From an uncultured Gemmatimonadales bacterium (lineage in GTDB: Bacteria > Gemmatimonadota > Gemmatimonadetes > Gemmatimonadales > GWC2-71-9): 64,000 bases of DNA. The DNA lies in NCBI GenBank assembly GCA_963821525.1, contig CAWGED010000012.1, forward strand, positions 96,001 through 160,000, written 5' to 3'. Shown piece after piece: positions 4,747 to 34,975 of the stretch (position 1 is the first letter of the stretch; each line of letters starts with the position of its first letter). Under the pieces are notes generated by a model. It was not told the origin of the DNA, made no database searches, and saw nothing but the letters and a program-made list of their open reading frames with translations. The translations under genes were made by a program, and so were the position numbers.

Positions 4747-7531
4747 ATGAAGATCATTGATCGGTCCGTCTACGTCGGGCCAAGCCTCTACGCCCACTTC
4801 CCGGTCATCCGTCTCGACGTAGACCTGGGACCGCTGGAAGAGTGGCCCACCGGCCGGCTCGGTCCGCAGTTCATCGACGGCCTGCTCGCGGCGCTCCCGG
4901 GGCTGGTTGAGCACGGCTGCTCCTACGGCGAGCCGGGCGGCTTCATCCGCCGGATGCGGGAGGATGGCGGCACCTGGCTGGGCCATGTGCTGGAGCACGT
5001 TGCCATCGAACTGCAACAGGCCGCCGGAGGAAAAGTCACCTTCGGCAAGACCCGCTCGGGCGATGTTCGCGGCCAATACCACGTGGTCTTTCAGTACGAC
5101 CAGTCCGACATCGGCCTCGAGGCCGGCAACCTCGCCCTCACCCTCCTGCACAGCCTGCTCCCCAGCGAGCTGCAGGAGCCGGGGAGCGTCCCCGGCGATT
5201 TTCACTTTCAGGCCGAGCTGGAGTCGTTCATCAAGTTCGCCCAGCGGCGGGATCTCGGTCCCAGCACCGCCTCGCTGGTCCATGCCGCCGAGGAACGCGG
5301 GATTCCCTGGATCCGGCTCAATTCGCAGAGCCTGATCCAGTTCGGGCACGGCAAGTATCAGCAGAGGATTCAGGCGACGATCACCAGTCGCACTCCGCAC
5401 ATCGCCGTCGAGCTGGCCTCCGACAAGGAGGAGACCAACAAGATCCTCGCCGGGCTGGGACTGCCGGTACCCAAGCAGGCGCTCGTCACTCGCGAAGAAG
5501 ATGCTGTCCGTTCCGCCGCCGAGATCGGCTACCCGGTCGTGGTGAAGCCGTACAACGCCAACCACGGGCGCGGGGTCGCGATCCACCTGACCGATGCCGC
5601 GCAGGTTCGGGCCGCGTTCCCGGTGGCCCAGCAGCACAGCCGCAGCGTGATCGTCGAGAGCTTCATCCGGGGAGACGATCACCGGATGCTGGTGGTGAAC
5701 GGGCAGCTGATCGCTGTCGCCAAGCGGGTACCGGGTCACGTCGTGGGGGACGGCGAGCACACGATCGAAGACCTGGTCAAGATCGTCAACAGCGACCCGC
5801 GCCGCGGCGTGGGCCACGAGAAAGTGCTCACCCGCCTCGAGTTCGACCATCAGGCCGAGCGGCTTCTCGCCAAGAAGGGCTACGACCGGCAACACCGTCC
5901 CTCCAAAGGGCGAGATGGTGTATCTCCGTTCGACCGGCAATCTGTCGACCGGCGGGACTTCGATCGACGTGACCGACATCGTGCACCCCGACAATGTCGA
6001 GATGGCGATGCGGACCATTAAGGCCATCGGGCTGGACGTAGGGGGAGTCGACTTCCTCACGCCGGACATCACCGTCTCCTATAAGGAAAACGGTGGCGCC
6101 ATCTGCGAGGTGAATGCGGCACCCGGCTTCCGGATGCATACCGCGCCGAGCGAAGGGACGCCTCGTGATGTCTCGGGTCCGGTGCTCGACATGCTGTTCC
6201 CGCCAACGACGCCATCGCGTATTCCGATAGCCGCCATCACGGGCACCAACGGGAAGACCACAACGGCCCGGATGCTGGCCCACATCCACAAGCTGGCGGG
6301 GCGCACCGTCGGCATGACCACGACCGACGGCGTCTACATCGACGGCCAGTGCACCATGAAGGGAGACATGACCGGTCCGGTGTCCACCCGGATGGTGCTG
6401 AAGGATCCCACCGTGGACGTGGCGGTGCTGGAGATTGCGCGTGGCGGGCTGGTGCGAGCCGGAATGGGGACCCGCTTCATCGATGTGGCGGCGGTGCTCA
6501 ACGTCCAGTCGGACCACCTCGGCCTGCGCGGCATCGATACGCTGGAGCAGCTCGCCGCCGTGAAGCGGATTCCGGTCGAGGTCGCGAAGGACACCGCGGT
6601 GCTCAACGCCGACGACCCTCACGTGCTCCGGATGGCGGACTACACCGAGGCCAAGCACGTCTGCTACGTCACCATGAACCCCGACCACAGCCTGGTGCGG
6701 GAGCACATCCGGGCCGGCGGCCGCGCCGTCTCTCTGGAGCGCGGAATCAACGGCCAGATGATCACGATCTACGATCGCGGCGCGCACATCCCGCTCCTCT
6801 GGACTCACCTCATCCCGGCGACGCTCGAGGGTCGCGCGACCCACAACGTCCAGAATGCCATGTTCGCCGCGGCGCTGGCCTTCAGCATGGGCGTGAAGCT
6901 GGAAGACATCCGACACGGCCTGCGGACCTTCGACACCACGTTCTTCCAGGCCCCGGGCCGGATGAACGTCTTCGATGAGCTGCCGTTCAAGGTGATCGTG
7001 GACTATGGGCACAACGCCGCGGCGATCGAGGTGATGTGCCAGTTGGTGGAGCGGCTGGAGCCCAAGGGCCGGAAGCTCGTGGTGCTGGCGGGCCCCGGGG
7101 ATCGCCGGGACGAGGATATCAAGCAGATCGCGAAGGTGGCCGCCGGCCGGTTCGACCGGTACATCGTGCGGCGGGATGACCAGCTCCGGGGACGGGCGCC
7201 GGAGGAAGTTCCCCACATGTTGCGTGATACCCTCATCGCGAGCGGGGTCTCACCCGACCGGATCGAGGTGATTCCGGAGGAGCCCACCGCCGTAGCCACC
7301 GCACTCGCGATGGGTCAGCCCGATGACCTGCTGCTCATCTTCGCCGATCAGCCAGTCCGCACCTGGAAGCAGGTCATTCAATTCCGGCCCGATGCTCAGG
7401 CCCCCGTGGAAAGGATTTCCCGGCCGGTGTTCGTCGAAGTGCCCCAGGTCCCCGCCTTGTCGCTCGGAGAGAGCGATGCCCTGGTGCGGGATGAACGGGG
7501 CGTAAGGCTGGCCCGCGAGACCGAAGACTAA
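4747..7531 (+). CDS. cphA: cyanophycin synthetase CphA1; apparent +1 frameshift near 5890
   Basis: N domain EHGCSYGEPGGF and HVLEHV; LGPST; ATP-grasp VVKPYNANHGRGV, TGNLSTGG, EVNAAPGFRMH; Mur domain ITGTNGKTTT, PGRMN, DYGHN. Confidence 0.95.
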
Positions 7532-20029: not shown

Positions 20030-21139
20030 TTATCCCGCGCCGCTCCCCGGGGCAAGTCCGTTCTGCGAGGGCCCGGGCCAGGAGGAGAGATAGCGGAGCA
20101 GAGTGTTCTCTTCAGGCCCCAATCCCTCTTCTGTCGCGGTACCGCTGCTCTGTTTCTGCCAGAGCCGAAAACTCTCCTCTCTGGTAAAGGCTTCGAGCAC
20201 GGCTGGATGGATGTAGCACTTGCGGCAGATCGCGACGGTGTTGCCCAGTTGCTCCGCCACGATACCGATCGCCGCGAGCGCCGCTGCCTTCCCCGCACTG
20301 TTTGACTCGAAGGCTTCACTCACCGCCAGGCACTGCGCCGCGATCAGGGTGCCGCCCCAGGTCCGGAAATCCTTGGCCGTGAAATCCTGCTCCGCAATCA
20401 GCTTGATATAGGCGTTGACATCCTCCGCGCCGATCGGCTGGGCCTCGCCCGCTTCGTCCAGGTACTGGAAGAGATCCTGGCCAGGCAGGTCCCGGGAACG
20501 CTTCACCAGCCGGGCGAGCCGACGATCGGTCACCTGCACTACATGGAATTTCCCGCTCTTTCCCCGGAACTTGAACTGGATCCGGGAACCCTGCACATCT
20601 ACATGGCGATTCTTGAGGGTGGTAAGCCCGAACGAGCTGTTGGTACGGGCGTACCATTCGTTGCCGACCCGGATGAAGGTGGTCTCCAGCAGCTTGACGA
20701 TGGTGGCGAGCAGCTTGTCCCGCGGGAGGCCCGGAAGCGCAAGATCCTCCTCCACTCGTTTACGGATCCTCGGAAGCGCCCGCGCGAACAGCACCAGCCG
20801 CTCGTACTTGGTCTCGTCCCGGACCTGGCTCCACCGCTTGTGGTAGCGGTACTGCTTGCGCTTACGCGCGTCACGTCCGGTGGCCTGGAGATGTCCTTCG
20901 GGAGCGGGAGCGATCCACACGTCGGTCCATGCGGGAGGGATCGCGAGGGCGCGGATCCGCGCGAGGGTGGCTTCGTCGCGCATCGGTTTGCCATCCGGCC
21001 CGCGATAGGAAAACCCGGTTCCGTTGCGGTGCCGGGTGATGCCGGGCTTGGCGTCGCTGACGTAGCGCAGCTGCGCGGCCTTCGCGGCCTCGACCGGTAG
21101 CATGAACGGGTCGGGGGCCGTGCGTTTACGTCGCGGCAT
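20030..21139 (-). CDS. DNA topoisomerase IB (bacterial)
   Basis: IPPAWTDVWI, KQYRYH, IRVGN, FRGKSG, TAKDFRTW, LGNTVAICRKCYIHP with catalytic Tyr. Confidence 0.93.
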   Translation of the reverse strand: MPRRKRTAPDPFMLPVEAAKAAQLRYVSDAKPGITRHRNGTGFSYRGPDGKPMRDEATLARIRALAIPPAWTDVWIAPAPEGHLQATGRDARKRKQYRYHKRWSQVRDETKYERLVLFARALPRIRKRVEEDLALPGLPRDKLLATIVKLLETTFIRVGNEWYARTNSSFGLTTLKNRHVDVQGSRIQFKFRGKSGKFHVVQVTDRRLARLVKRSRDLPGQDLFQYLDEAGEAQPIGAEDVNAYIKLIAEQDFTAKDFRTWGGTLIAAQCLAVSEAFESNSAGKAAALAAIGIVAEQLGNTVAICRKCYIHPAVLEAFTREESFRLWQKQSSGTATEEGLGPEENTLLRYLSSWPGPSQNGLAPGSGAG

Positions 21140-21158
21140 GGAGGTCGTGTGCCGGGGA

Positions 21159-21242
21159 GGGAGTGGGGAGTGGGTGTGTGGGGTTGTGGGGCGTAGGAGA
21201 GATTCAGTGCCCCCACTACCCACCACCCACTCCCTACTACCC
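21159..21242. repeat. inverted pair of G-rich/C-rich heptamer arrays (GGGAGTG-like)
   Basis: gggagtg-gggagtg-ggtgtgt... facing ccactac-ccaccac-ccactcc-ctactac. Confidence 0.75.
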
Positions 21243-22449: not shown

Positions 22450-22915
22450 TCAGCTCACTCCGGCCCGGGCCGTGAAGAAGGAGCGCACGTCGTGGGGAAT
22501 CCAGAGCAGCCAGAGCGCCGCGAGTCGCAGCGCGAAGCTCACCCCCTGCTCGATCGTGACACCGGTGACTTCAGCCGGGATCAGGGCGGACGAATCCCGG
22601 AGGAATCCATATCCGGCTATCGTCCCGATCACGAGCGTTGCCGTGGTGACCAGGCGGATCCAGCTCTTCCCCCGCGGCAGGACCAGCGTGAGCCAGGCGA
22701 ACAGGAGTGCCACGGCGGCGTGGACAATCACACTGCCGATGATCGTCTGGTTGGCGGCGTGTTCGACTTGCTCCGGCGTCAGGCTCGGCTGGCGGCGCGC
22801 CCAGGAGGCCGCGACCTCCGGCCGATGATTCACGGAACAGGAGGGCCACGACCAGCTGGAGCAGAGCGAGGACGGCCAGCAGGATCTGGGTCCAGCGAAT
22901 TTGTGCGGGGGCCAT
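22450..22915 (-). CDS. hypothetical membrane protein; frameshift near 22830
   Basis: four hydrophobic segments across two frames. Confidence 0.6.
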
Positions 22916-23132
22916 CTCAGGACAAGAGTTGGTACGCCACTAGGGCGAGGGTTCGCAAGGCATCATTGAATGTCAGCATCACATCCCTCCACGAGGATCA
23001 CGTCCCAGTATAACCACGGTCCGGCGATGACCGGACGGGTTCCTGGCATGGGACCGTGTGACCATTCCCCTTGCGATTCTGGGGATACTTACTAAGCTGT
23101 TCTGCACAAATACGGATGCCCTGCGCATCCAC

Positions 23133-23218
23133 CCTTGTCGAGCGAGGCGTTTGGCCGGCCCGCGAGACGAAGGCGTAATCGAGCTCCAACGGGAGACTTC
23201 GGTTGCGCTTTTTTGTTG
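23133..23218 (+). ncRNA. candidate cis-regulatory leader RNA (antiterminator/terminator), copy 1
   Basis: CCTTGTCG...AGACGAAGG stem overlapping a terminator (GCGTAATCGA/TCGGTTGCGC plus T6); upstream of the DUF4397 gene. Confidence 0.7.
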
Positions 23219-23239
23219 CACTTATTGTGGGAGGACAGG

Positions 23240-23998
23240 ATGACCAGGACAATGACATTCATGACCGCGCTCCTCGCCATTGGGTTGAGCGCGTCGTGCA
23301 AAGGTGCCAGGACCGATCGGCCCGTTGCCACCAACGCCGGAGGAGACACCACGCTTTCACCATCGGGCGACTCGGCGGCCGGGCAAGGGCGGTCGATGGT
23401 GCGGCTGGTGAATGCGCTGCCCGCCAATCAGTCGATTGACGTCTCGGGAGACGACCGCACGATCTTCAGCGCGGTCACCTACAAGAAGGTCACGCCTTAC
23501 GTCGAGGTGAAGGACAACCGCGTCACCTTTCGCCTTTTTCCAACGGCGAAGGACAGCGCAATAGCTGACAACAGTGAAATGATGGCGGACGGCAACCGTT
23601 ACACGATCGTAGCACTCCCCGACGACAAGGGCGGCGCGACGATGCGTATTCTAAGGGACGAGGTCGTGCCGGATTCCGGCAAAGCGCGGGTCCGGGTGAT
23701 CAACGCCTCTCCGGGCGTCAAGGACGCCGATGTGGCGCTGCAGGGACAAAAGGACCCGCTCTTTTCCGATATCGATTACAAGAGCGAGGCGGGCTACAAG
23801 GACATCACGCCGATCACGGCGACGGTCGAGATCAGGGGCGACGACCCGAACTCCAAGCCGATCCTGGTCAAGAACGTCCACTTCGAGGCCGGCAAGGCAT
23901 ACACAATCGTGTTGACCGGCTGGAAATCGAAGCCGGTGGAAGTCATCACTTTCGACGATAGCGAGACCGGCGGAGTGGCCGGGCTGTCGCTGCACTAA
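23240..23998 (+). CDS. DUF4397 domain lipoprotein
   Basis: lipobox SASC; VRLVNALP, ARVRVINASP, GKAYTIVLTG; GGAGG RBS. Confidence 0.85.
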   Translation: MTRTMTFMTALLAIGLSASCKGARTDRPVATNAGGDTTLSPSGDSAAGQGRSMVRLVNALPANQSIDVSGDDRTIFSAVTYKKVTPYVEVKDNRVTFRLFPTAKDSAIADNSEMMADGNRYTIVALPDDKGGATMRILRDEVVPDSGKARVRVINASPGVKDADVALQGQKDPLFSDIDYKSEAGYKDITPITATVEIRGDDPNSKPILVKNVHFEAGKAYTIVLTGWKSKPVEVITFDDSETGGVAGLSLH

Positions 23999-24465
23999 TG
24001 GAGTGTTCGATGATGAGCCAGGAAAACGCCTGGTTGACCGGCCGGGAGCTCCTGATCAGCGAGATCGAGATCAGGGTCGAGGCGATGAGAAGCGAAGCGG
24101 AAAAGACCCGCGGGTTTAGAGCCGGAGTGCTGGTGTTTCTCGAGCGGAGGCTCACGCGGGCCAAGAGCGCGCTGGCCACACTCCGGCATCTGCCGAGTGC
24201 TCTTTCCGAAGGCCGGCGTCAAACCGTCGACCGCATGGTCTCGGCTATCATCGGCACCCTGCGTCACGCAGAGATCACGCTTCGGGGTGAGTCCGGCACA
24301 CCACCTGAGCCGGATCAGGAGTTCCTTCGTGAACGCCGTCGGGCAGAACGGCGGCAATCTCCCTCGCGGCGCGCAACCAGACGTCCCGTGCCGGCAGGGC
24401 AGGACGAGGATCCCGCGAGTCCACCCGAACCGGACCGGGACCGGGATGTAGGTGACGGGAGCTGA
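23998..24465 (+). CDS. hypothetical helical protein with Arg-rich C-terminal segment
   Basis: TAATG coupling to the DUF4397 stop; ERRRAERRQSPSRRATRR. Confidence 0.6.
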   Translation: MECSMMSQENAWLTGRELLISEIEIRVEAMRSEAEKTRGFRAGVLVFLERRLTRAKSALATLRHLPSALSEGRRQTVDRMVSAIIGTLRHAEITLRGESGTPPEPDQEFLRERRRAERRQSPSRRATRRPVPAGQDEDPASPPEPDRDRDVGDGS

Positions 24466-24528
24466 CAGGCTGGCTCTTGCGGCGAAGCGGCTCGGTTCGT
24501 ATTGTCGTGGCGCGGTGAAATAGCCGAA

Positions 24529-24602
24529 CCTTGGCGCGCTGGCTTCCGGCCCGCGAGTCGAAGGCGCAGGAATCTTCGGATTCCTTGCGCCTTCTTGTTT
24601 TT
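24529..24602 (+). ncRNA. candidate cis-regulatory leader RNA, copy 2
   Basis: CCTTGGCG-hairpin-AGTCGAAGG; terminator AAGGCGCAGGAATC-TTCG-GATTCCTTGCGCCTT plus T-rich tail; TTGCGG-N17-TATTGT promoter at 24477-24505. Confidence 0.72.
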
Positions 24603-24646
24603 CCGGGCCGGACCAGCCTGCCGCCAAGGCATGGAAAGTAGGAGAA

Positions 24647-24868
24647 ATGGACGTGAGGGAACTCAACAGTTGTGCTCTATCTCTTCAGCGCTTCGACTGG
24701 TCCAGCGGAGTGGACCTATGCAAACGGTCGCCCGGTCCGGGTTCCTGCCAACGCCACGAATCAGGATGTAGATAGCCGCAACATCTGTCCTTCCTCGACT
24801 GGAGCATGGGATAAGCAGCCAGCCGCATTCTCGCCCTGGACCGGGCCGTCCTACTCACCGACCACTAA
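24647..24868 (+). CDS. possible small frameshifted hypothetical protein
   Basis: AGGAG RBS plus ATG just after the leader motif; continuity needs more than one frameshift. Confidence 0.3.
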
Positions 24869-25244
24869 CCGTTGCACTCCCTGCCTCCGCGCCCTCGGCG
24901 CGCTGACCGATGTTGTCGCGCCTTGAGTCCGAGCCTTCCGTTGTCTGGAACGGGTGGGGGGTCGCGTTCTGCGTGGCGGCGTTCATCCTCGGCATTGTTG
25001 CCGCCTCCGACAATGGGCCTTCTATACCACAGGCAACCGAGCTTCGGATCCGCGCCGATCCCAGGATTCGCGGTCGCTGCAGATCCAAAGTTGGTGAGCC
25101 GGAAGTAAGAATTGGGTTCCTGCCATCGGTGAGTAATCCCACCCTGAATTGATCTCCTAAGCCTCTCCGATTGGCATGTGCGCCAAGGCCTTGCGGTTCG
25201 CCTATAACGGGCCGTATAGTCCCTCGTTAGCAGGTGGCAGGAAT

Positions 25245-25323
25245 CCTTGGCGGGTCGGGCAGTCGGCCGACCAGTCGAAGGCGCGAAGGGGATCCTCAGA
25301 TCCTCCGCGCCTTTTTTTGTTTT
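25245..25323 (+). ncRNA. candidate cis-regulatory leader RNA, copy 3 (kai operon leader)
   Basis: CCTTGGCG-GGTCGG/CCGACC-AGTCGAAGG; terminator AAGGCGCG...CGCGCCTT plus T7; TTGCGG-N18-TATAGT promoter at 25191-25220. Confidence 0.72.
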
Positions 25324-25341
25324 CGGGAGGTGCGCCGCGAC

Positions 25342-27690
25342 ATGGAATCTCAAGTCGCCTCTCAGGAAAGCCCACCTCGGGACCTTCAAGGGCGCCCCAA
25401 CGACCAATGGCTCCAGGCCATCTTCGGCCAGGCAGCCGTGGGAATCGCCGTAATAGACGGCGAGGGGCATTTCCTTCACTGTAACCAGAAGCTCGCGCAG
25501 ATAACCGGCCGTGGCGTGGCGGAGCTCATTGGCCTCAAGTGCTCCGAGATCACGCATCCCGACGATTGGCCGGCCAGCCAGGCGCATGATGGAGGACCTG
25601 CGCAGAGGCATACGCACCGAATTCTCCGCCGAGAAGCGTTACCTGCGTCCCGACGGCGCGGTGGTCTGGGTAAATGTGGCTGTCTCGCCCTTGCGCGACG
25701 CGACCGGGCGGTTCGATCGCCTCATTGCCGTCGTCGAGGACATTACCGCCCGCAAGCGGGCGGAGCAGGCGGTTCAGGAACGGGAGCACAGGGTGCGCCG
25801 GGTGCTGGAGCGAATGCCCGCGGGCACCTACCTCTGCGATCGCCACGGTCTCATCACCTACTTCAACCATCATGCCGAGGCGTTGTGGGGACGGGCGCCG
25901 AAGCTCAATGATCCGATCGATCGCTACTGCGGATCCTTCAAGCTGTTCGCGGCGGACGGAACACCGATCAATCACTCGGAATGCTGGATGGCCCTCGCGC
26001 TGCGCGACGAGACCGCGTACGACGGGCAAGGAGATCATCATCGAGCGCCCCGACGGGAAGCGGATGACCGTCCTCGCTCATGCCAATCCGATCTGGGGAC
26101 GACGATGACGAGCTGATCGGGGCGGTCAATGTCCTGGTGGATATCTCAGATCGGAAGCACGCCGAGCAGTCGCTGCGCGAAAGCGAGGATCGCTTCCGTC
26201 ATCTGGCCGACAATGTTCCGGTGCTGATCTGGGTGTCCGGACCCGATGGCTACGAGTTCGTGAACCGCGAGTACCTCAAGTTTGCCGGCTGCGATTTCAG
26301 CCGGCTCGAAGGCGCCGGGTGGCAGGACCTGCTCCATCCATCCGACGCGCCGGGATTCATCGCCGCCTACGAGCGGGCTGGTCGCCAGCGCCAGCGCTTC
26401 GAAATGCAACTCAGGTTCCGGCGCGCCGACGGAGAATACCGCTGGCTCCGGGTTACCGCGGTTCCCCGCCTCGACGAGGATGGCGAGGTGCTCGGTTTCG
26501 TCGGCTCCTCGGCAGACATCACCGACATCAAGCGGTCGGAGGAGACTCTGCGGGAAGCGGATCAGCGGAAGGACGAGTTCCTGGCGACCCTGGCCCACGA
26601 GCTGAGGAACCCCCTCGCCCCGATCCGTAATGCACTCCAGATTATCCGCGTGGGCACCGACCAGGAGTCGGTGGGCAAGGTCCACGACATGCTGGAGCGC
26701 CAGGTGGATCAGATGGTACGGCTGGTTGACGACCTGCTTGAAGTCTCCCGAATCACTCGTGGAAAGATCGAGTTGCGCCGGGAGCGGGTAGACCTGGGTG
26801 CCGTGATTCGTAGCGCCCTCGAAACCAGCAAACCATTGATTGACGCAGCCCGGCATGAACTCACCGTCGGGCTCCCCATCGAACCGCTGTGGCTCGACGC
26901 CGATCCGGTCCGGCTGGCCCAGGTCTTCTCCAATCTCCTGAACAACGCCGCCAAGTACACCGAACCAGGCGGACGAATCTGGATCAACACCAACCGGCAC
27001 AACGACCAGGTCGTCGTCTCGGTATGCGATACCGGCATCGGGATCTCACCGGAGAAAATTCCCAAAGTCTTCAACCTGTTCGCCCAGCTCGATACCACGA
27101 CGGCGAAGGCGCAGGGCGGACTCGGCATCGGACTCGCCCTGGCCCGGCGATTGGTCGAGATGCACGGCGGGCGGATCGACGCCCGGAGCGGTGGTGAGGG
27201 AGAAGGAAGCGAGTTCCGGATCCATCTGCCGCTGGCTCGGGAGCAGGAACGCAAGCGGACCAGCAATCCCCCGCGCCTTGCCAAAGCGGACGAGGCGCCC
27301 TCAGTACACCGGGTCATGGTGGTTGACGACAACCGGGATGCCGCCGACAGCCTCGGAATGTTGCTCCGGCTCCGCGGGATGCAGGTGCAGGTCGCGAACG
27401 ACGGCCCCTCCGCCCTCAAGACCTTCTCCACCTTCCATCCCACGGTCATCCTGCTCGACCTTGGCATGCCGGGGATGGACGGATACGAGGTCGCCGAGCA
27501 GATCCGGCGTCTGCCGGACTCCGCGAACGTGGCCCTTATCGCACTCACCGGCTGGGGGCACGCCGAGTTCCGCCAACGCAGTCGGGAGAGTGGATTCGCT
27601 CATCACCTGGTAAAGCCGGTCGAGCTGGATGCTCTGCTGAGCCTGCTGGGATCCCTTCAGCCGGACGCCCCATTGGCGCCGGCCGACTAA
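25342..27690 (+). CDS. hybrid sensor histidine kinase (3 PAS, HisKA, HATPase, REC); frameshifts near 25580, 26030, 26095
   Basis: PAS/PAC segments; LAHELRNPL; NLLNNAAKY; GGLGIGL; VVDDN...LDLGMPGMDG. Confidence 0.9.
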
Positions 27691-27703
27691 ACAGGATGGA
27701 GCC

Positions 27704-29462
27704 ATGACCGACGTCGCGAGGAGAGAAGAAGTAGGCCGGACGAATGGGCATGCGGGGCAGGAGTTGGCCAAGTCGGCCACGGGCATTCAGGGGCTCGACG
27801 AGATCACCGGAGGCGGACTTCCTGCCGGCCGGCCCACCCTCATCTGCGGCAGTGCCGGATGCGGCAAGACTCTCCTTTCCCTGGAATTCCTGGTGCGGGG
27901 AGCAGTGGAATTCGGAGAGAACGGCGTGTTCCTGGCCTTCGAGGAAACCGCCGAGGAGTTGAGCCAGAACGTCCGTTCACTCGGCTTCGATCTCGACCAG
28001 CTGATCGAAGACGGCAAACTCGTTGTGGATTACGTCCATGTCGACCGCAGCGAGATCGACGAGACGGGCGAGTACGACCTCGAGGGACTCTTCATCCGCC
28101 TGGCAGACGCCATCGACCAGGTCGGAGCCAAGCGGGTTGTTCTGGACACGATCGAGAGCCTCTTCAGCCGGCCTCTCGAACGACGCCATCCTCCGCTCCG
28201 AGCTGCGCCGGCTGTTTCGCTGGCTCAAGGAGCGCGGCGTCACCGCCATCATCACCGGGGAGCGGGGAGAGAAGTCGCTGACTCGGCAGGGCCTGGAGGA
28301 GTACGTCTCGGATTGCGTGATCCTGCTGGATCACCGGGTCTCCGACCAGCTCTCGACCCGGCGGCTCAGGGTCGTCAAATACCGGGGCTCGACCCACGGC
28401 ACCAACGAGTATCCGTTCCTCATCGATCGAATTCGGCATCAGCGTCCTCCCGATCACCTCGCTGGGCCTGAAGCACGGAGCCACAAACGAACGGATTTCC
28501 ACCGGCGTCGCAGGCCTCGACGCGATGTTGGGCGGCAAGGGCGTCTACCGGGCCTCCAGCATTCTGATCTCGGGGACCGCGGGAACCGGGAAGACCACCA
28601 TCTCGGCACACTTCGCCGATGCCGCGTGCCGCCGGGGGGAACGCTGCCTGTACTTCGCCTTCGAGGAATCACCCGACCAGATCGTCAGGAACATGCGGTC
28701 GGTCGGCATCGACCTGCAGCCATGGGTGGACCGGGGCCTGCTCGTGATCCATTCCAGCCGTCCCAGTATGTACGGCCTGGAGACCCACCTCACCACGATG
28801 TACCGGGAGGTGCGGGCGTTCAACCCTCGGCTGGTCATCATGGATCCCATCACCAGTTTCCTTCGTTCGGACGGGGGCAACCGACGCGGAGGCGATGCTG
28901 GTTCGCATGATCGATTTTCTGAAGGGTTGCGAGATTACGAGCGTCTTCACCAGCCTGACCCGGGGAGGGAGCGCGCTGGAGCAGTCCGAGGTTGGGGTCT
29001 CGTCGCTCATCGATACCTGGCTGGTGGTGAAAGAGATCGAACAGCAGGGTGAGCGAAACCGCGGCCTCTACGTGATCAAGTCCCGCGGCATGAAGTCATT
29101 CCGACCAGATCCGGGAATTCCAGCTTACCGACGAAGGAGTGGAGCTCAAGGATGCCTACATCGGACCCGAGGGCGTCCTCACCGGATCGGCCCGCCTGGC
29201 GCAGGAAGCTCGGGAAGAGGCGGCCAAGGTCAAGCGCCAGGAGGACATCGAGCGGAAGCAACGGTCACTGGAACGGAAACGTCAGGCACTCGAAGCCCAG
29301 ATCGCCGCGTTGCGCCTGGAGTTCGAGGGTGAAGAACAGGAAGCCCAACGCATGCTCGTGGAGGATCAGCGCCGCGAGGAACGGCTCGAGGAAGACAGAG
29401 ATGACATGGCTCGCAGTCGGAAACTGGACCCTCAGCCTCAGAAAGCCCAGGAACCAACATGA
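27704..29462 (+). CDS. kaiC: KaiC (KaiC2-type, C-terminal coiled coil); four apparent +1 frameshifts near 28170, 28428, 28880, 29096
   Basis: two Walker A motifs GSAGCGKT and [47 protein letters not shown]. Confidence 0.93.
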
Positions 29463-29803
29463 CCGACATCTTGAACCGGGACGACACCGCGAAGCTTCCC
29501 TCTCCGCCGGCAGAGGCGGGCGAGGAGACATGGGAACTGCGGCTGTATGTTGCGGGTCAGTCTGCCAAGTCGGTAACCGCCTTCGCCAACTTGCGGGCGT
29601 TGTGCGAGCAATACCTGCCGGGCAAGTACGAGATCGAAATCGTCGATCTGCTGCAGAAACCTCAGCTGGCGCGCGGGGATCAGATCGTAGCCATCCCTAC
29701 TCTGGTACGGAAGCTTCCGGAGCCAATCCGGAAGATCGTTGGCGACCTATCCAACACCGAGAAGACCCTGGTGGGTCTGCAGCTTCGTCCCCGAGCCTGG
29801 TGA
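29459..29803 (+). CDS. kaiB: KaiB family protein
   Basis: [38 protein letters not shown]. Confidence 0.94.
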
Positions 29804-30148
29804 TTGATCGTGCGAGACCCTATTGGAAATCCAGACACCAAGGCATTTGAGGATCTGCTCAAACAACGGGGCCAGAGCCACTATAGCCTGCGTCTATATA
29901 TCACCGGCATGACGCCGCGCTCGACCGACGCCATCGCCGCCATCAAGAGCATCTGTGAAGAATTCCTCCAGGGGCGCTATGACCTCGAAGTGATCGACAT
30001 CTATCAGCATCCGGAACAGGCGAGAGCCGCCCAGATCATCGCCTCGCCCACCCTGCTCAAGCGCCTGCCGGTCCCGTTGCGTCGCCTGATCGGGGACCTC
30101 TCCAATCGGGAACGGGTCCTGATTGGACTCGACCTGGCCGAGACGTGA
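29804..30148 (+). CDS. kaiB: second KaiB family protein
   Basis: LRLYITGMTPRS, LEVIDIYQHP, IIASPTLLKRLPVPLRRLIGDLS. Confidence 0.93.
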   Translation: MIVRDPIGNPDTKAFEDLLKQRGQSHYSLRLYITGMTPRSTDAIAAIKSICEEFLQGRYDLEVIDIYQHPEQARAAQIIASPTLLKRLPVPLRRLIGDLSNRERVLIGLDLAET

Positions 30149-30158
30149 GTCCGACGCG

Positions 30159-31899
30159 ATGAAACCGCCCACCGAGCAGGGACCGAGCCGGGAGTCGCTC
30201 GCTAACAACCAGCCGGGGAGCCCCCGGGAGCAACTCGAAGCCGAGATAGCTGCTCTGCGCATCAGGCTGGAGGAGAGCGAGGAGACAATCCAGGCTATCC
30301 GGTCGGGAGCGGTGGACGCCTTTCTGGTCGAGGGTCCCGACGGAGAAAAGGTGTACGCCCTGGAATCGGCGGATCGTCCTTATCGGATCCTCGTCGAGTG
30401 CATGAACGAAGGGGCGATTACCCTGAGCGCCCAGGGCAACATCCTGTATTGCAACCCCCATTTCGCCGAGATGCTGGGGAGGTCCGCCGAAAGTCTCATG
30501 GGCCACGCCATGTGCGACGTGGTCGTCTCCACCGATCGCGACGAGTGCACCAGGATGCTCGAGGTCGCCAAGACGGTGCCGACGGAAGGTGAAGTCCTGC
30601 TCGAGCGTGGCGATGGAACCATCGATTCCGGTCCACCTCACCCTGAGCCCGCTTCCTATCGAAGGCGCCGCGGTCGTCTGCGGCGTCGTCACCGACCTCA
30701 CCGAGCACAAGCACAACGTGGAGCTGAGGGTCGCCCAGGCCGCGTTGCATGATAGCGAGGCACGCTACCGGCAGGCCGACAAGCAGAAGGACGAGTTCCT
30801 GGCGATCCTCGCCCACGAGCTCCGGAATCCGCTCGCCCCGGCCACCAACGCGCTGCACATTCTGCAGATCAAGGCGCCGCCGATCCCGGAGCTGCAATGG
30901 GCCCGGGAAGTCATCGCAACCCAGGTCCAGCGGATGACCCGACTGATCGACGACCTCATGGACGTCAGCCGCATCACCAGTAACAAGCTGACGCTGAGAG
31001 TGGAGCGGGTGGAGCTGGCCAGGGTAATCGAAGAAGCGCTCACCAACAGCCGTCCATTCATCGACGAGTCGCAGCACCAGCTGAGAGTGGTGCTCCCGAG
31101 GGAGTCGGTGCTGCTCAACGCCGACCTCGTTCGCATGGCCCAAGTTCTGTCCAACCTGCTGATCAACGCCGCCAAGTATACCAACCCCGGTGGTACCATC
31201 GCTTTGCGGGCGGAGCGCCAGGACGGAGAGGCCGTGATCTCGATCAAAGACTCCGGAATCGGCATTCCCCCGGAGTTGCTGCCCAGAATCTTTGACATGT
31301 TCATGCAGGGAGACCGGACCCTGACCCGCACTCACGGCGGCCTCGGTATCGGCCTCACCCTGGTGAAGCGACTGGTGGAAATGCATGGGGGAAGCGTCGA
31401 GGCATGGAGCGAAGGGAAAGACAAGGGAAGTGAGTTCACCATCCGGATCCCCGCCCTGGTGGATCCGCGCAACCGGGAGCGCGACGCCATCCCCGCCGAC
31501 GACTCCATGCCGAAGGGTCACCGGCGCATCCTGATCGTCGATGATAACGAGCTGTCGGCCAACAGCCTGAGCATTCTGCTGGGCATGGCAGGGAACGAGA
31601 CCCGCACCGCGTACGACGGAGCCGAAGCGGTTGCCACCGCCGAGACCTTCCGGCCCGACGTGGTGCTGCTGGACCTCGGCCTTCCCCTGATGGACGGCTA
31701 TGAGACCTGCACCCGGATCCGGCAGCAACCATGGGGCAAGGACATCCTGGTGGTCGCCTTGACCGGGTGGGGACAGGCCGAGGACCGCCGCCGCAGCACC
31801 GAAGCCGGGTTCGATCGCCACATCGTGAAACCGGCGGATCCGGTTCAGTTGATGAAGTTGCTGGCCGAGTTGGAGGCGGCAAAGGAGCAGGCTTCATGA
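30159..31899 (+). CDS. hybrid PAS histidine kinase; frameshift near 30620
   Basis: EETIQAIRSGAVDA, PAS, LAHELRNPL, HATPase, REC (VDDN, LDLGLP). Confidence 0.9.
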
Positions 31900-31921: not shown

Positions 31922-31976
31922 ACGATACCTTGACATCCGACAACAGCGTTCGTATTGTCGGATGTCGAGGTATCGT
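31922..31976 (+). promoter_or_regulatory. sigma70-like promoter inside a 22-bp inverted repeat (putative PadR operator)
   Basis: acgataccttgacatccgacaa / ttgtcggatgtcgaggtatcgt (21 of 22 match); TTGACA 31930, N17, TATTGT 31953. Confidence 0.8.
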
Positions 31977-31994
31977 CTTTTTTGGGAGAAACCG

Positions 31995-32324
31995 ATGGAT
32001 CAGCGCGCCGACTTGCTCCAGGGCACTCTGGACCTGCTCATCCTCAAGACGCTCGTGCTGGGACCGCTCCATGGCTGGGGCATCTCCAAGCGGCTGCGCC
32101 AGCTGTCGGACGAGGTATTTGAAGTCGGACAAGGCAGCCTCTACCCCGCCCTCTACCGGCTCGAAGACCAGGGCTGGATCACAGCCGAATGGGGCACCAG
32201 CCCGGATGGTCGTCGCGCCAAATTCTATACGTTGACGGCCGCCGGAAAAAAGCAGTTTGCCGCTGAGCGCTCTCAGTGGCGGCTCTTCTCCGGAGCAGTG
32301 GAGCAGGTCCTCAAGGCAACCTGA
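31995..32324 (+). CDS. PadR family transcriptional regulator
   Basis: [37 protein letters not shown]. Confidence 0.93.
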
Positions 32325-32326
32325 CG

Positions 32327-34975
32327 ATGGCGCTCTCCTGGTGGTCACGGCTGTCGCGTCGCTTCACCGCCCTTCGCAAAGGCGAGCGGCTCGACCACGA
32401 GCTGGACGCCGAGATCCGCTTGCACCTCGACTTGGAGGCGGAAGAGCTGGCCCGCACCCGGGGCCTCGACCCGGGAGAGGCGAGGCGCCAGGCACTGGTC
32501 GCCTTCGGGGGAGTCGACAGATATAAGGAAGCACATCGGGACGCGCGGGGAGTCCGCTGGGCGAGTGACCTGGGACAGGACCTCCACTATGCCGCCCGCA
32601 GCCTCCGGCGCAGTCCCGGTTTCTCGCTCTCCGCGATTCTCGTCCTCGCCCTGGGCATCGGAGCATGCACCGCGGTCTTCAGCGCGGTCAATACGGTTCT
32701 CCTCGATCCGAACTACGACAATCTGGTGCGGGTCTACCAGCAGAACTCACCCACCAATCTCTGGACCCTCTCGACCGTCGACTACCGCGCGATTGAAGCG
32801 CAGCAGAAGAGCTTCTCTGCCGTCGGGGTTCTCCAGTCTCGTAGCGTGGCAGTCTCCGCCGGCGCGGATCCGACCAGAGCGCAGTCCGGCTGGGCCAGCG
32901 CCGGATTCTTCCGCGCCCTCGGTATCGAGCCGCTCCGCGGCCGGGGAATCGAGCCTGCGGACGAGGTGGTCGGCGCGCCGCCGGTCGTGGTGATCGGCTA
33001 CCGGTTCGCGGTCCACAACTTCGGCGATGTTCGAGCCGCCGTCGGGCGCACCATCACCATTGATGGCGTCGCGTTCACGGTCATCGGGGTTCTCCCGCCC
33101 TCGGTTACCGATCTGGCCGGCCGCAGGGCGGAGATCTGGCCCGCGCTGCAACTGCGTCCTCCGGAGCGGCGAGGCCCCTTCGGACTGCTGGTCATCGGCC
33201 GGCTCACGCCGAACGCGACTCTCGAGTCGGCCCGTCAGGATCTGGCCGGAATCAGCGAGCGCATCTTCCCCGAGTGGGCGGCCAGCTTCCAGGACAAGAC
33301 GGCGCGTCTTACTCCTTACCCACTGCGGACGGCGGTGCTGGGGAATTCGAAACAGATGCTCACCATCTTCTCCGCCGCAGTCGGTCTGGTGTTGCTCATT
33401 GCCATCGCCAATGTCGCGAGCCTCATGCTGGTCCGGGTAACGGGCCGGGGACAGGAGATCGCTCTGCGCACGGTGCTGGGCGCAACCCGCAGTCGGCTGC
33501 TCCGGCTCCTGGTCACCGAGAGTGTCACCCTCGCGGCCGCCGGCGCCTTGCTCGGGATTCTCCTCGGCGCGCTGGCCCTCCAGGCGCTGGTCGCGTTCGG
33601 ACCTGCTCTCCCCCGTCTCAGCGAGGCTCGGCTCGATGGTCGAGCGGTGGCATTTGCGGCGGGGTTGGCGCTCTTCGCCGGGCTCATCATCGGCGCCTAC
33701 CCAACCCTCTCACTGATGCGGGGCAATCCCGCTCCCGGATTGCGAGAGGGAGAACGAACCATTGGCGGTACCCGGCGCTCGCAGGCGATTCGCGGAGCAT
33801 TCGTCGTGGCGGAGATCGCGCTCTCGCTCCCGCTCCTCGCCATCGCGGGACTTCTGCTCAACAGCTTCCTGCGGCTTTCCCGAGTGGATCCGGGATTCGA
33901 TCCAAGGCAGATCCTGACGCTGCGGGTTCAGCTTCCCTCGTCGCGCTACGCCAATGACACCACCATTTCGGGATATTGGGCCCACGCGATTCCTCTAGTG
34001 AAACAAGTGGCGGGAGTCGTGGATGCGGGACTCGGGTCATCCATCCCACCCGATGACCAGGGCTGGAGCAACAACAATTTCGATCTGGTGGACCGGCCAG
34101 TTCCCTCAGGCACTGCCCAACCTACCTCGGCCTGGCCGAGTGTGACCTCGGAATACTTTGCTGCGCTGGGAGTCCCGCTGCTCGAGGGTCGACTCTTCAC
34201 TCCGGGCGACACCGCATCGGGAGACAGCGTCTCGGTCCCTCCCGTAGTGGTGGTGAGCCGGACCTGGGCCAGGCGTTATTTCCCGGACGGAACCGCGGTT
34301 GGCCGGCGCCTCATTTCAGGCGGTTGCACGAGCTGTCCATTCACGACGGTGGTCGGAATCGTGGGAGACATCAAATACGAGGGACTGAGCGGCAGAGCCG
34401 ATGCAGTCTACGGCCCCGCCACGGAGGGCTGGGGGCAGGACATGACTCTCTTCGTACGCACCGCGGGCTCTCCCGCCGAGGTACTCGATCGAGTCCGCAC
34501 AGCGCTCCGGTCGGTGGACCCCGATGTCCCGCTCGACGACGCCGCGCCGATGGAAGACCGGGTGTACCGGTCGGTGGCTCAGCCGAGGAATTGGATGGTG
34601 TTGTTGAGCGGATTCGCCACGACCGCACTGCTTCTGGCCGGCGTGGGCATCTTCGGCATGCTCTCGTATACGGTGCGCGCTCGACGCAGAGAAATTGGCG
34701 TGCGGATGGCGCTCGGCGCTCGTCAGCCTGCCGTGGTGGGTATGATCGTGCGGCGCGGCATGCGGCACGCACTGCTCGGTACGGCACTCGGCTTGGCTGC
34801 CGCGCTCGCCGGAACTCGCGCACTCCACAGCACGCTGTTCGACCTCAGTACTACCGATCCGCTGACCCTCGCCGCCGTGACGCTCCTGCTCCTCGGCGTC
34901 GCACTCATCGCCTGCTGGCTACCGGCCCGCCAGGCGGCGGCGATTGATCCGGTTGAGGTGATTCGACTCGAGTAG
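32327..34975 (+). CDS. duplicated MacB/FtsX-type ABC permease (ADOP-like)
   Basis: [50 protein letters not shown]. Confidence 0.92.

Follow-up and report, generated by a model that had tools for sequence, protein, structure and literature searches.

Leader RNAs with competing hairpin and terminator precede general-stress genes in Gemmatimonadota and are genomically linked to a response regulator

The window considered here is a 64-kb stretch of DNA (contig C12, positions 96001-160000) from the 4.33-Mb assembly of an uncultured Gemmatimonadales bacterium (19 contigs, 81% complete). It carries three copies of a leader RNA element in which an irregular, conserved hairpin and an intrinsic terminator compete for the same nucleotides, the third copy standing in front of an operon with kaiC and kaiB genes. 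This element is very probably a cis-acting antiterminator/terminator switch. What is established here is the motif with its structure, its competition with a terminator, the regulon and a genomic association with a response regulator; the proposal that this regulator clamps the hairpin by binding it, and so allows read-through, is evenly balanced. Throughout, G000 denotes the window's genome and G001, G003, G004 and so on its relatives, L numbers denote loci and g numbers genera.

The pattern searched, CCTTGKCG-N(8-38)-AGWCGAAGGCG, has exactly three matches in the window, all on the + strand (23133-23175, 24529-24566 and 25245-25283), and 0 of 100 dinucleotide-preserving shuffles contain it. 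Three such leaders had been described in an initial annotation of this DNA, made from the letters of the sequence, together with TTGCGR-N16/17/18-TAnnnT hexamers upstream; the hexamers are indeed there and agree with only 7-8 of 12 consensus positions. The promoters are listed below as putative. After each copy comes a G+C-rich hairpin starting with AAGG and then a U-rich tract, and the terminator of copy 2 has the C(UUCG)G loop noted earlier. A ribosome-binding site (RBS) and ATG, initially assigned to all three leaders, stand behind copies 1 and 3; behind copy 2 there is no conserved gene.

23071..23098, + strand: putative promoter of leader 1, TTGCGA-N16-TAAGCT (by reading; 7/12 sigma-70 consensus positions; absent from the consensus scan)
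23133..23175, + strand: motif copy 1, with P1 CCUU/AAGG, P1b GUC/GAC, G.A and the P2 hairpin (exact pattern; 52.5 bits with covariance model R1)
23169..23218, + strand: intrinsic terminator of leader 1, in which the motif's GAAGG opens the 5' arm (ViennaRNA hairpin of -21.2 kcal/mol, then UUUUUUGUUGC)
23240..23998, + strand: DUF4397 lipoprotein gene, the first behind copy 1 (PF14344, E 5.4e-33; RBS GGGAGGA before the ATG at 23240)
23998..24465, + strand: P0002, 155 amino acids (aa) with an Arg-rich C-terminus, its start overlapping the DUF4397 stop (open reading frame, ORF; no Pfam or NCBIfam match)
24477..24505, + strand: putative promoter of leader 2, TTGCGG-N17-TATTGT (by reading; absent from the consensus scan)
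24529..24566, + strand: motif copy 2 (exact pattern; R1 50.8 bits)
24560..24604, + strand: terminator of leader 2, with the C(UUCG)G loop (hairpin of -21.8 kcal/mol, then CUUGUUUUUCC)
24605..25190, + strand: remnant region behind copy 2, no conserved gene (alignment with G001 and G004)
25191..25220, + strand: putative promoter of leader 3, TTGCGG-N18-TATAGT (by reading; 8/12 consensus positions; absent from the consensus scan)
25245..25283, + strand: motif copy 3 (exact pattern; R1 55.7 bits)
25277..25323, + strand: terminator of leader 3 (hairpin of -22.8 kcal/mol, then UUUUUGUUUUCG)
25342..31899, + strand: operon behind copy 3, with a PAS-PAS-PAS-HisKA-HATPase-REC kinase, KaiC, KaiB, KaiB and a PAS-HisKA-HATPase-REC kinase (Pfam)

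The consensus of the element is an irregular hairpin, CCUUGKCG-P2-AGWCGAAGG. In the columns of alignment A1 (29 copies from five genomes, from which covariance model R1 was built), the lower helix P1 consists of C4-G44, C5-G43, U6-A42 and U7-A41; G40 is bulged, and P1b follows with G8-C39, K9-W38 and C10-G37. Above P1b, G11 lies opposite A36, and position 12 faces position 35 as A.G, G-C or C-G. The inner helix P2 counts 5-8 pairs and is closed by a terminal loop variable in length and sequence. The fine structure read initially from the three window copies is borne out: at the K/W position copy 1 has U-A where copies 2 and 3 have G-U, the lower stem is topped by a G facing an A, and the inner hairpins differ in sequence and still pair. 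The whole leaders 1, 2 and 3 are more stable than shuffles (z of -1.86, -3.59 and -2.81), but the P1-P2 hairpins of copies 1-3 alone are not (47, 47 and 11 of 200 shuffles, respectively, fold equally well), so that the case for the structure is made by covariation.

Covariation, proposed as a check in the initial annotation, is found. In alignment A4 (64 copies, from which model R2 was built), whose fitting to the covariance model favours that model in pair statistics, two-sided, compensatory changes occur at 12 of the 15 modelled pairs and standard pairs fill 90.0% of the cells, versus 76.0% in shuffles (0/500 equal the observed value); when partners are slid by 1-3 columns, standard pairing reaches at most 56%. 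A MAFFT alignment of 29 sequences gives 86.4% versus 76.5% in shuffles and shows two-sided changes at 8 of 15 pairs. P1 is nearly invariant (59-64 of 64 sequences) yet covaries, from U-A to C-G at both inner positions, while G8-C39 appears in A4 as A-U in 2 sequences and as G-U in 14. K9/W38 is non-standard in 24 of the 64 sequences, commonly as U opposite U. G8, C10, G11, A36, G37, G40 and A41 are strictly conserved. In the commonest form, GUCGA stands on both strands (G8-A12 and G37-A41) around a central U.U, a pseudo-symmetry noticed by reading the alignments. Paralogous copies differ in P2 sequence and keep the pairing.

Two other readings of these nucleotides were ruled out. A K-turn formed by the G.A and A.G pairs is discounted by inspection, four extra nucleotides (nt) lying between the GA and the lower helix on the non-bulged strand. 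A DNA operator, i.e., an inverted repeat for a DNA-binding regulator, is excluded by the variable length of P2 and its covarying pairs; furthermore, G-U pairs are frequent (14/64 at A4 pair 9-63) and the copies are co-oriented with the downstream gene.

The terminator was sought with a strict script that demands a hairpin opening with the P1 3' tetramer and closing on four nucleotides complementary to it, then 4 or more U in the following 9 nt. By these criteria, a terminator follows 170 of 197 unique matches pooled from alignments A4 and A6 (an earlier, looser script found one after 47 of 62). The 5' strand of P1, its 3' strand and the terminator 3' arm read CCUU/AAGG/CCUU in 118 of the 170, and joint changes in all three places are seen as CCCU/AGGG/CCCU (six times), CCUC/GAGG/CCUC (twice) and CCCG/CGGG/UCCG (once), with CUCG/CGAG/CUCG in a diverged copy of G025. 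Two mutually exclusive helices have therefore been kept by evolution, in agreement with the suggestion in the initial annotation that hairpin and terminator compete through a common AAGG.

Forced folding places the terminator state below the P1 state by 3.8, 8.9 and 6.2 kcal/mol in leaders 1, 2 and 3, and in each of them an RNA ending at AAGG folds as the complete hairpin. In the P1 state, the terminator stem lacks its lowest 4-5 pairs and ends 5-6 nt short of the U tract; intrinsic terminators with a stem shortened and set back in this way should terminate less well. On the simplest reading, the default would be OFF and a stabilised P1 would be ON. Hairpin covariation and terminator competition support the two options put forward at the outset, a riboswitch or a protein-bound antiterminator.

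The leaders belong to an RNA family outside Rfam 15, and the initial impression that they fall outside the known riboswitch classes is upheld. No Rfam 15 model matches the 64-kb window at its gathering score, and at E<=10 over 22900-25600 there are three unrelated low matches, the best being mir-4743 with 23.7 bits against a cut-off of 72. A full-text literature search, supplements of motif surveys apart, returned no description of the motif or of the regulator family; the only CsbD-linked candidate found was a Streptococcus yjbJ motif, which has two hairpins (PMC11109978).

Three further copies are found on contig C4 of G000 by exact pattern. Model R1 finds 11 copies in this genome, and R2 finds the same 11 and none further at E<=0.1. 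In relatives, the exact-pattern search was dropped in favour of covariance models, as it gave coding-sequence false positives and 6 of its 38 distinct matches had no terminator (L011, L012, L013, L015, L016 and L017). Weak R1 matches (E 1e-4 to 1e-2, 14 genomes) were distrusted as well; the two inspected looked false (one coding-like in G009, the other without terminator in G153, L108). At E<=1e-4, R2 recovers the same 19 genomes as the strong R1 matches. These 19 belong to a family sample of 151 genomes from 78 genera of the window organism's family, and are spread over 9 genera; copy numbers are highest in G162 and G165 (13 each), followed by G000 and G011 (11 each). In a phylum sample of 151 genomes, searched with R1 at E<=0.001, the motif is present in 12 of 71 genomes of the same family and in 3 of 31 genomes of a second family (one copy each, all in genus g45, two of the three being single-contig assemblies), versus 0 of 48 genomes across ten further families.

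The covariance-model search of relatives advised in the initial annotation thus finds the element, and finds it in 5' untranslated region orientation: a same-strand ORF starts within 300 nt of the model end for 50 of 60 unique matches. Several genera have tandem units before a CsbD operon, 130-205 nt apart, each consisting of a motif and its own terminator (L033 7347-7620; L100 151-399; L141, L142, L148 and L166 at about 4841-5089).

This consistent placement bears on the possibility that no regulation is involved and that the elements are constitutive attenuators, trans-acting terminated small RNAs or a dispersed repeat. The unit does have a small-RNA outline (putative promoter, about 80-100 nt, terminator), and copy 2 has no gene behind it. 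Nevertheless, this explanation is very improbable. It is at odds with the same-strand ORFs and with the three-way covariation, which preserves two exclusive helices, something superfluous in a plain terminator. The P2 pairing is retained among paralogous copies of different P2 sequence, so these are not recent repeat copies. RNA-library contigs from three runs overlie parts of 24523-25019, and one contig, X1 (363 nt, 1 mismatch), covers copy 2 and its terminator (24523-24886). X1 fits read-through past the leader 2 terminator, but only weakly, because such libraries may contain DNA and the contigs have no transcript ends.

Tabulating the genes downstream, a further check suggested at the outset, brings out recurrent stress families. 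Among the 107 downstream ORFs scanned, DUF892, DUF1328, CsbD, OMP_b-brl, DUF4397, an orthologous PAS-PAS-HisKA kinase and LuxR-type regulators recur, while topoisomerase IB with a hybrid kinase, a HAMP array, MsrA and DUF2383 are single cases. The first of these single cases is in G011, where the TopIB gene and then the hybrid kinase gene lie directly behind a motif copy (L071 1408-2511). The regulon is a general-stress set, and comparable gene sets are controlled elsewhere by sigma-B, RpoS or EcfG. In G000, copy 1 precedes the DUF4397 gene and the unknown 155-aa protein, copy 2 nothing conserved, and copy 3 the Kai operon. Further copies precede a 991-aa membrane PAS kinase with a 243-aa response regulator, and a porin-like beta-barrel protein; two tandem copies stand before CsbD, a small membrane protein and DUF892. 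The remaining ones lie before a second CsbD with an iron permease, DUF892, an M48-like peptidase, and a short ORF for what reads as a small exported or membrane protein (family unscanned). CsbD is termed a general stress family in PMC11109978.

The initial proposal of a regulon that includes a Kai system holds as far as the regulon goes, its members being general-stress genes, whereas the Kai operon is a member in this genus only. The distance from the motif copy to KaiB downstream is about 4.2 kb in G000 and G001 and 2.7 kb in G003. Of five many-copy genomes from other genera, G109 alone has KaiB, on a contig without a motif match, hence the Kai link is specific to the window organism's genus. 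As for copy 2, its leader in G001 precedes a long ORF that reads as a pyrroloquinoline quinone-dehydrogenase-like lipoprotein (family unscanned), while G000 and G004 retain only a remnant. The possible small ORF of 42 codons first indicated behind this copy fails to hold up, as it is conserved in neither of the two relatives compared, G001 and G004. On these alignments, copy 2 is an orphan leader that has lost its gene.

The motif is linked to the kinase-regulator pair by its distribution. Homologues of the regulator's C-terminal domain occur in 22 of the 151 family genomes. With the motif counted at E<=1e-4, 18 genomes have both, 1 the motif only, 4 the regulator only, and 128 neither. Two of the regulator-only genomes, G140 and G075, contain a diverged copy recognisable by eye (CCUGAUCG...AGGUAGAAGG and a terminator) before a CsbD gene 1.9 kb from the regulator; G025 has its diverged copy directly behind the regulator gene, and G149 has a 13-bit match only. 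Motif and regulator also share presence and absence inside genera g5, g13, g18 and g77. None of the conclusions depends on G225, whose sole contribution to one of the tallies is a receiver-domain match.

The link can also be seen from the regulator's side, at 80 loci picked from public Gemmatimonadota assemblies by regulator homology alone and then searched with R2. They contain 156 matches in 641 kb, versus 11 in 4.33 Mb genome-wide. Counted on the best 150 of these 156 matches, a motif lies within 4 kb at 73/80 loci and, on the same strand, at most 600 nt after the regulator stop at 58/80; it stands in front of the kinase gene at 33/80 and is divergent there at 17/80, and almost no matches fall inside the kinase and regulator genes. 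In genomes with a single copy (G031, G124 and three of genus g45), this copy is directly behind the regulator gene and not before the kinase gene. The sole copy of G230, a single-contig 5.3-Mb genome of the second family, is located between the kinase-regulator pair and a gene for an NtrC-type sigma-54 activator, which it precedes (L128 1-1545, - strand), an arrangement that suggests a cascade from antitermination to sigma-54 control. In view of this two-component link, the choice between the two options tilts towards the protein-bound one.

The G000 regulator, P0001 (243 aa), comprises a receiver domain and about 125 further residues without a Pfam match. A search at E<=0.001 returns 713 proteins of its family, the top 120 all being about 240 aa long with REC as sole Pfam domain; a separate count at 50% identity gives 609 clusters. 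Source names of regulator homologues point to Gemmatimonadota/Gemmatimonadales for the window organism. Two stretches are near-invariant in 74 diverse members: CxxxxCP, whose cysteine pair (195-201 in P0001) could be a redox or metal site, and the basic TKxxFxSKxLxxLR (220-233). Pfam gives no convincing match beyond receiver-type families in the 74 members, and none to ANTAR or DNA-binding families at E<=0.1; NCBIfam and PDB profile matches end by position 164. In the fold searches, the PDB profile search, the ESM Atlas (best score 0.82) and NCBIfam, the lists are filled by the receiver domain and give no information on the C-terminal domain. AlphaFold2, run with the 74 sequences, predicts REC, a long helix (109-147) and helices 156-186, 201-219 and 227-242 at a predicted local distance difference test score (pLDDT) of 88.4; with 9 sequences, the C-terminal domain stayed below a pLDDT of 50, which is unusable. 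The linked kinase has, by reading, several hydrophobic segments ahead of its PAS domains.

When metagenomes were scanned with the distant G177 regulator, nearly all matches were to the receiver domain, the C-terminal part being covered in 2/80 loci. In G177 (48% GC, another family of the phylum), a plain hairpin CCUUCA-N15-UGAAGG without a terminator lies just behind the regulator homologue (L237), directly adjoining the Shine-Dalgarno sequence of a gene for a small Cys-rich protein. This hairpin could represent the same principle acting on translation, or a coincidence.

From these elements, a mechanism can be proposed in which each leader would act as a conditional intrinsic terminator, transcribed from an ordinary-looking promoter. 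The nascent RNA would form the irregular hairpin, with P1, the bulged G, P1b, the G.A (often followed by A.G) and the variable P2. The emerging terminator 3' arm (...CGCCUU) would then capture GAAGG from P1, the terminator stem would reach the U tract and transcription would stop, which would be the default OFF state. A trans-acting factor clamping the lower, sequence-conserved part of the hairpin would instead hold GAAGG in P1, leaving the terminator stem 4-5 pairs short and away from the U tract, so that the polymerase would read through (ON). This factor would most likely be the phosphorylated response regulator of the linked membrane kinase, with its predicted REC, long helix and three-helix C-terminal domain. 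Overall, the system would be a two-component antitermination regulon of general-stress genes, in which the kinase-regulator operon is often self-controlled and the Kai operon has been recruited in this genus.

The regulator is favoured as the factor because of its near-perfect co-occurrence with the motif, its adjacency to the copy in single-copy genomes, and its nature as a receiver protein without a recognisable output domain. The most specific version is tentative and stands a little short of an even chance: the general stress response of Gemmatimonadota would be controlled after initiation, a regulator phosphorylated by the membrane kinase, dimeric and with its helical C-terminal domain as a new RNA-binding module unrelated in sequence to ANTAR or CAT, would clamp the pseudo-symmetric GUCGA/U.U helix at up to 13 leaders per genome, and in one genus a KaiC-KaiB system would have been captured, its proteins being made under stress.

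Several points weigh against the regulator as the clamping factor. Two genomes carry the motif without it: G175 (90% complete, 260 contigs), the motif-only genome of the family sample, has two copies, and G243 (97% complete, 3 contigs), in which no regulator domain is found at E<=1, has a 48-bit copy with a terminator ahead of a gene for a small membrane protein. The co-occurrence counts include related genomes, which are not independent observations, and could reflect the kinase-regulator operon being the most conserved target of the motif. A role of the C-terminal domain in binding DNA or protein is possible, the fold searches having used the whole regulator. In the RNA itself, the conserved nucleotides cluster at the non-standard pairs and the bulge, with P2 free to vary, and genomes have up to 13 copies, with tandem units bearing their own terminators. 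Around the window leaders, a consensus scan of 22900-25500 returned 0 promoter-like and 0 terminator-like sites; the terminators were probably missed because their stems are bulged, and the regions upstream of motif copies show a modest enrichment only, 67/195 reaching 8/12 of the promoter consensus versus 33/195 shuffles. Metatranscriptome contigs (soil, four studies) overlap parts of the region at low depth, and transcript ends are not visible in contigs.

Some of these points are what an ON-type riboswitch would produce. In this alternative, a small molecule or an ion (a stress alarmone or cyclic dinucleotide, for instance) would stabilise P1, and the kinase-regulator operon would be its most conserved target. 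The P1 3' strand common to the terminator is the architecture of ON riboswitches, the nucleotide conservation and the tandem units are accounted for, the near-complete G243 and the 90% complete G175 need no regulator, and the copies before the kinase gene at 33/80 regulator loci stand where a target would have them. Nevertheless, a riboswitch is rather unlikely. The downstream genes have no common metabolic or transport theme that names a ligand, and there is no conserved loop or junction to serve as a pocket beyond the single irregular helix. A P1 this invariant is more typical of sites bound by proteins, although the need to match in three places may account for it. Moreover, of the 129 genomes in the family sample without the regulator, a single one has the motif (E<=1e-4), and single-copy genomes carry their copy behind the regulator gene rather than before the operon.

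The small number of competing pairs raises another alternative, a conditional terminator read by an unlinked protein or by a signal of physical or kinetic nature, for example temperature, ionic strength or the speed of the polymerase. As only 4-5 pairs compete, modest inputs could tip the switch; the genes downstream are stress genes, and this alternative also accommodates G243 and G175. It is nonetheless improbable, given that a calculated terminator bias of 3.8-8.9 kcal/mol is large for a passive sensor, that the seven strictly conserved nucleotides point to specific recognition, and that the kinase-regulator link would be left unexplained.

Among known systems close to the protein-bound reading are the ANTAR antiterminators (EutV/EutW, AmiR, NasR). 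Both combine an antiterminator that is exclusive with an intrinsic terminator, GAAGG being common to the two here, and a REC domain in the regulator, which in the present case would act on RNA by inference from the genomic link. The ANTAR target consists of two tandem short hairpins with hexanucleotide loops, with A at position 1 and G at position 4 (PMC3369931), whereas the element described here is a single long irregular hairpin with 15 modelled pairs, a variable loop and conserved stem nucleotides. In addition, PF03861 is found in 0 of 74 linked-regulator members at E<=0.1 and not in P0001 at E<=1, and stress genes stand in place of nitrogen or ethanolamine genes. An ANTAR search of the whole of G000 gave no match, but its control was likewise silent.

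The likeness to BglG, SacY and LicT, whose logic the initial annotation invoked, is one of logic only. Their ribonucleic antiterminator (RAT), an imperfect palindromic hairpin of about 30 nt in partial overlap with the terminator, is clamped by a protein dimer (PMC12591593). An imperfect hairpin overlapping the terminator 5' arm is present here too, but the sequence is unrelated, no phosphotransferase system or sugar genes lie behind the motif, and the CAT_RBD domain (PF03123) has 0 matches in G000 (81% complete), the control being found in 4 of 14 genomes.

In the pbuE adenine riboswitch, which is of the ON type, the P1 3' strand starts the terminator 5' arm and stabilisation of P1 leads to read-through; tandem arrangements of riboswitches also occur. 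Like it, the element has a conserved structured domain that lies upstream of an expression platform and overlaps with it. It differs in lacking a multi-helix junction, in the conserved sequence of P1 and in a gene context that suggests no ligand. General stress systems such as the alphaproteobacterial PhyR-NepR-EcfG, sigma-B and RpoS act via alternative sigma factors at promoters. Their resemblance to the present system lies in the targets (CsbD, YciE/YciF-like DUF892, small membrane proteins and porins) and in the phosphorylation input, while the common element here is an RNA hairpin-terminator behind ordinary-looking promoters. The findings point to an undescribed route to the stress response, after transcription begins.

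RNA-binding antiterminators are known in very few protein families, namely CAT, ANTAR and HutP (PMC12591593). If the regulator does act on the hairpin, it would be a receiver-domain antiterminator in which both the RNA-binding domain and the RNA recognised are new, and a large unannotated regulator family would gain a function. If the element is a riboswitch, it would represent a new class tied to a general-stress regulon, with a stress signal as ligand. Either way, it offers a first handle on the control of stress genes in a poorly studied, abundant soil phylum and an ON switch that is portable and, at about 80 nt, compact, and it places a non-cyanobacterial Kai system within a defined regulon.

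Some observations concern the assembly and the neighbouring genes. The first PAS kinase (3 frames) and KaiC (at least 3 pieces) of the Kai operon are legible only across frame changes (25342-29462), and the DUF892 and nucleoside symporter genes on contig C4 are also frame-broken (L033 8141-8807 and 9671-11025). Comparison of the window with RNA-library contigs shows 1-nt indels at 23208, 23996 and 24718/24719. The frame breaks seem more likely to be assembly indel errors than pseudogenes. On the opposite strand, 2 kb upstream of copy 1, lies a bacterial type IB topoisomerase gene (20030-21226, - strand). On the 3' side of the Kai operon and on its strand lie genes for a PadR-type regulator and a MacB/FtsX-type permease of 899 aa (31962-34975).

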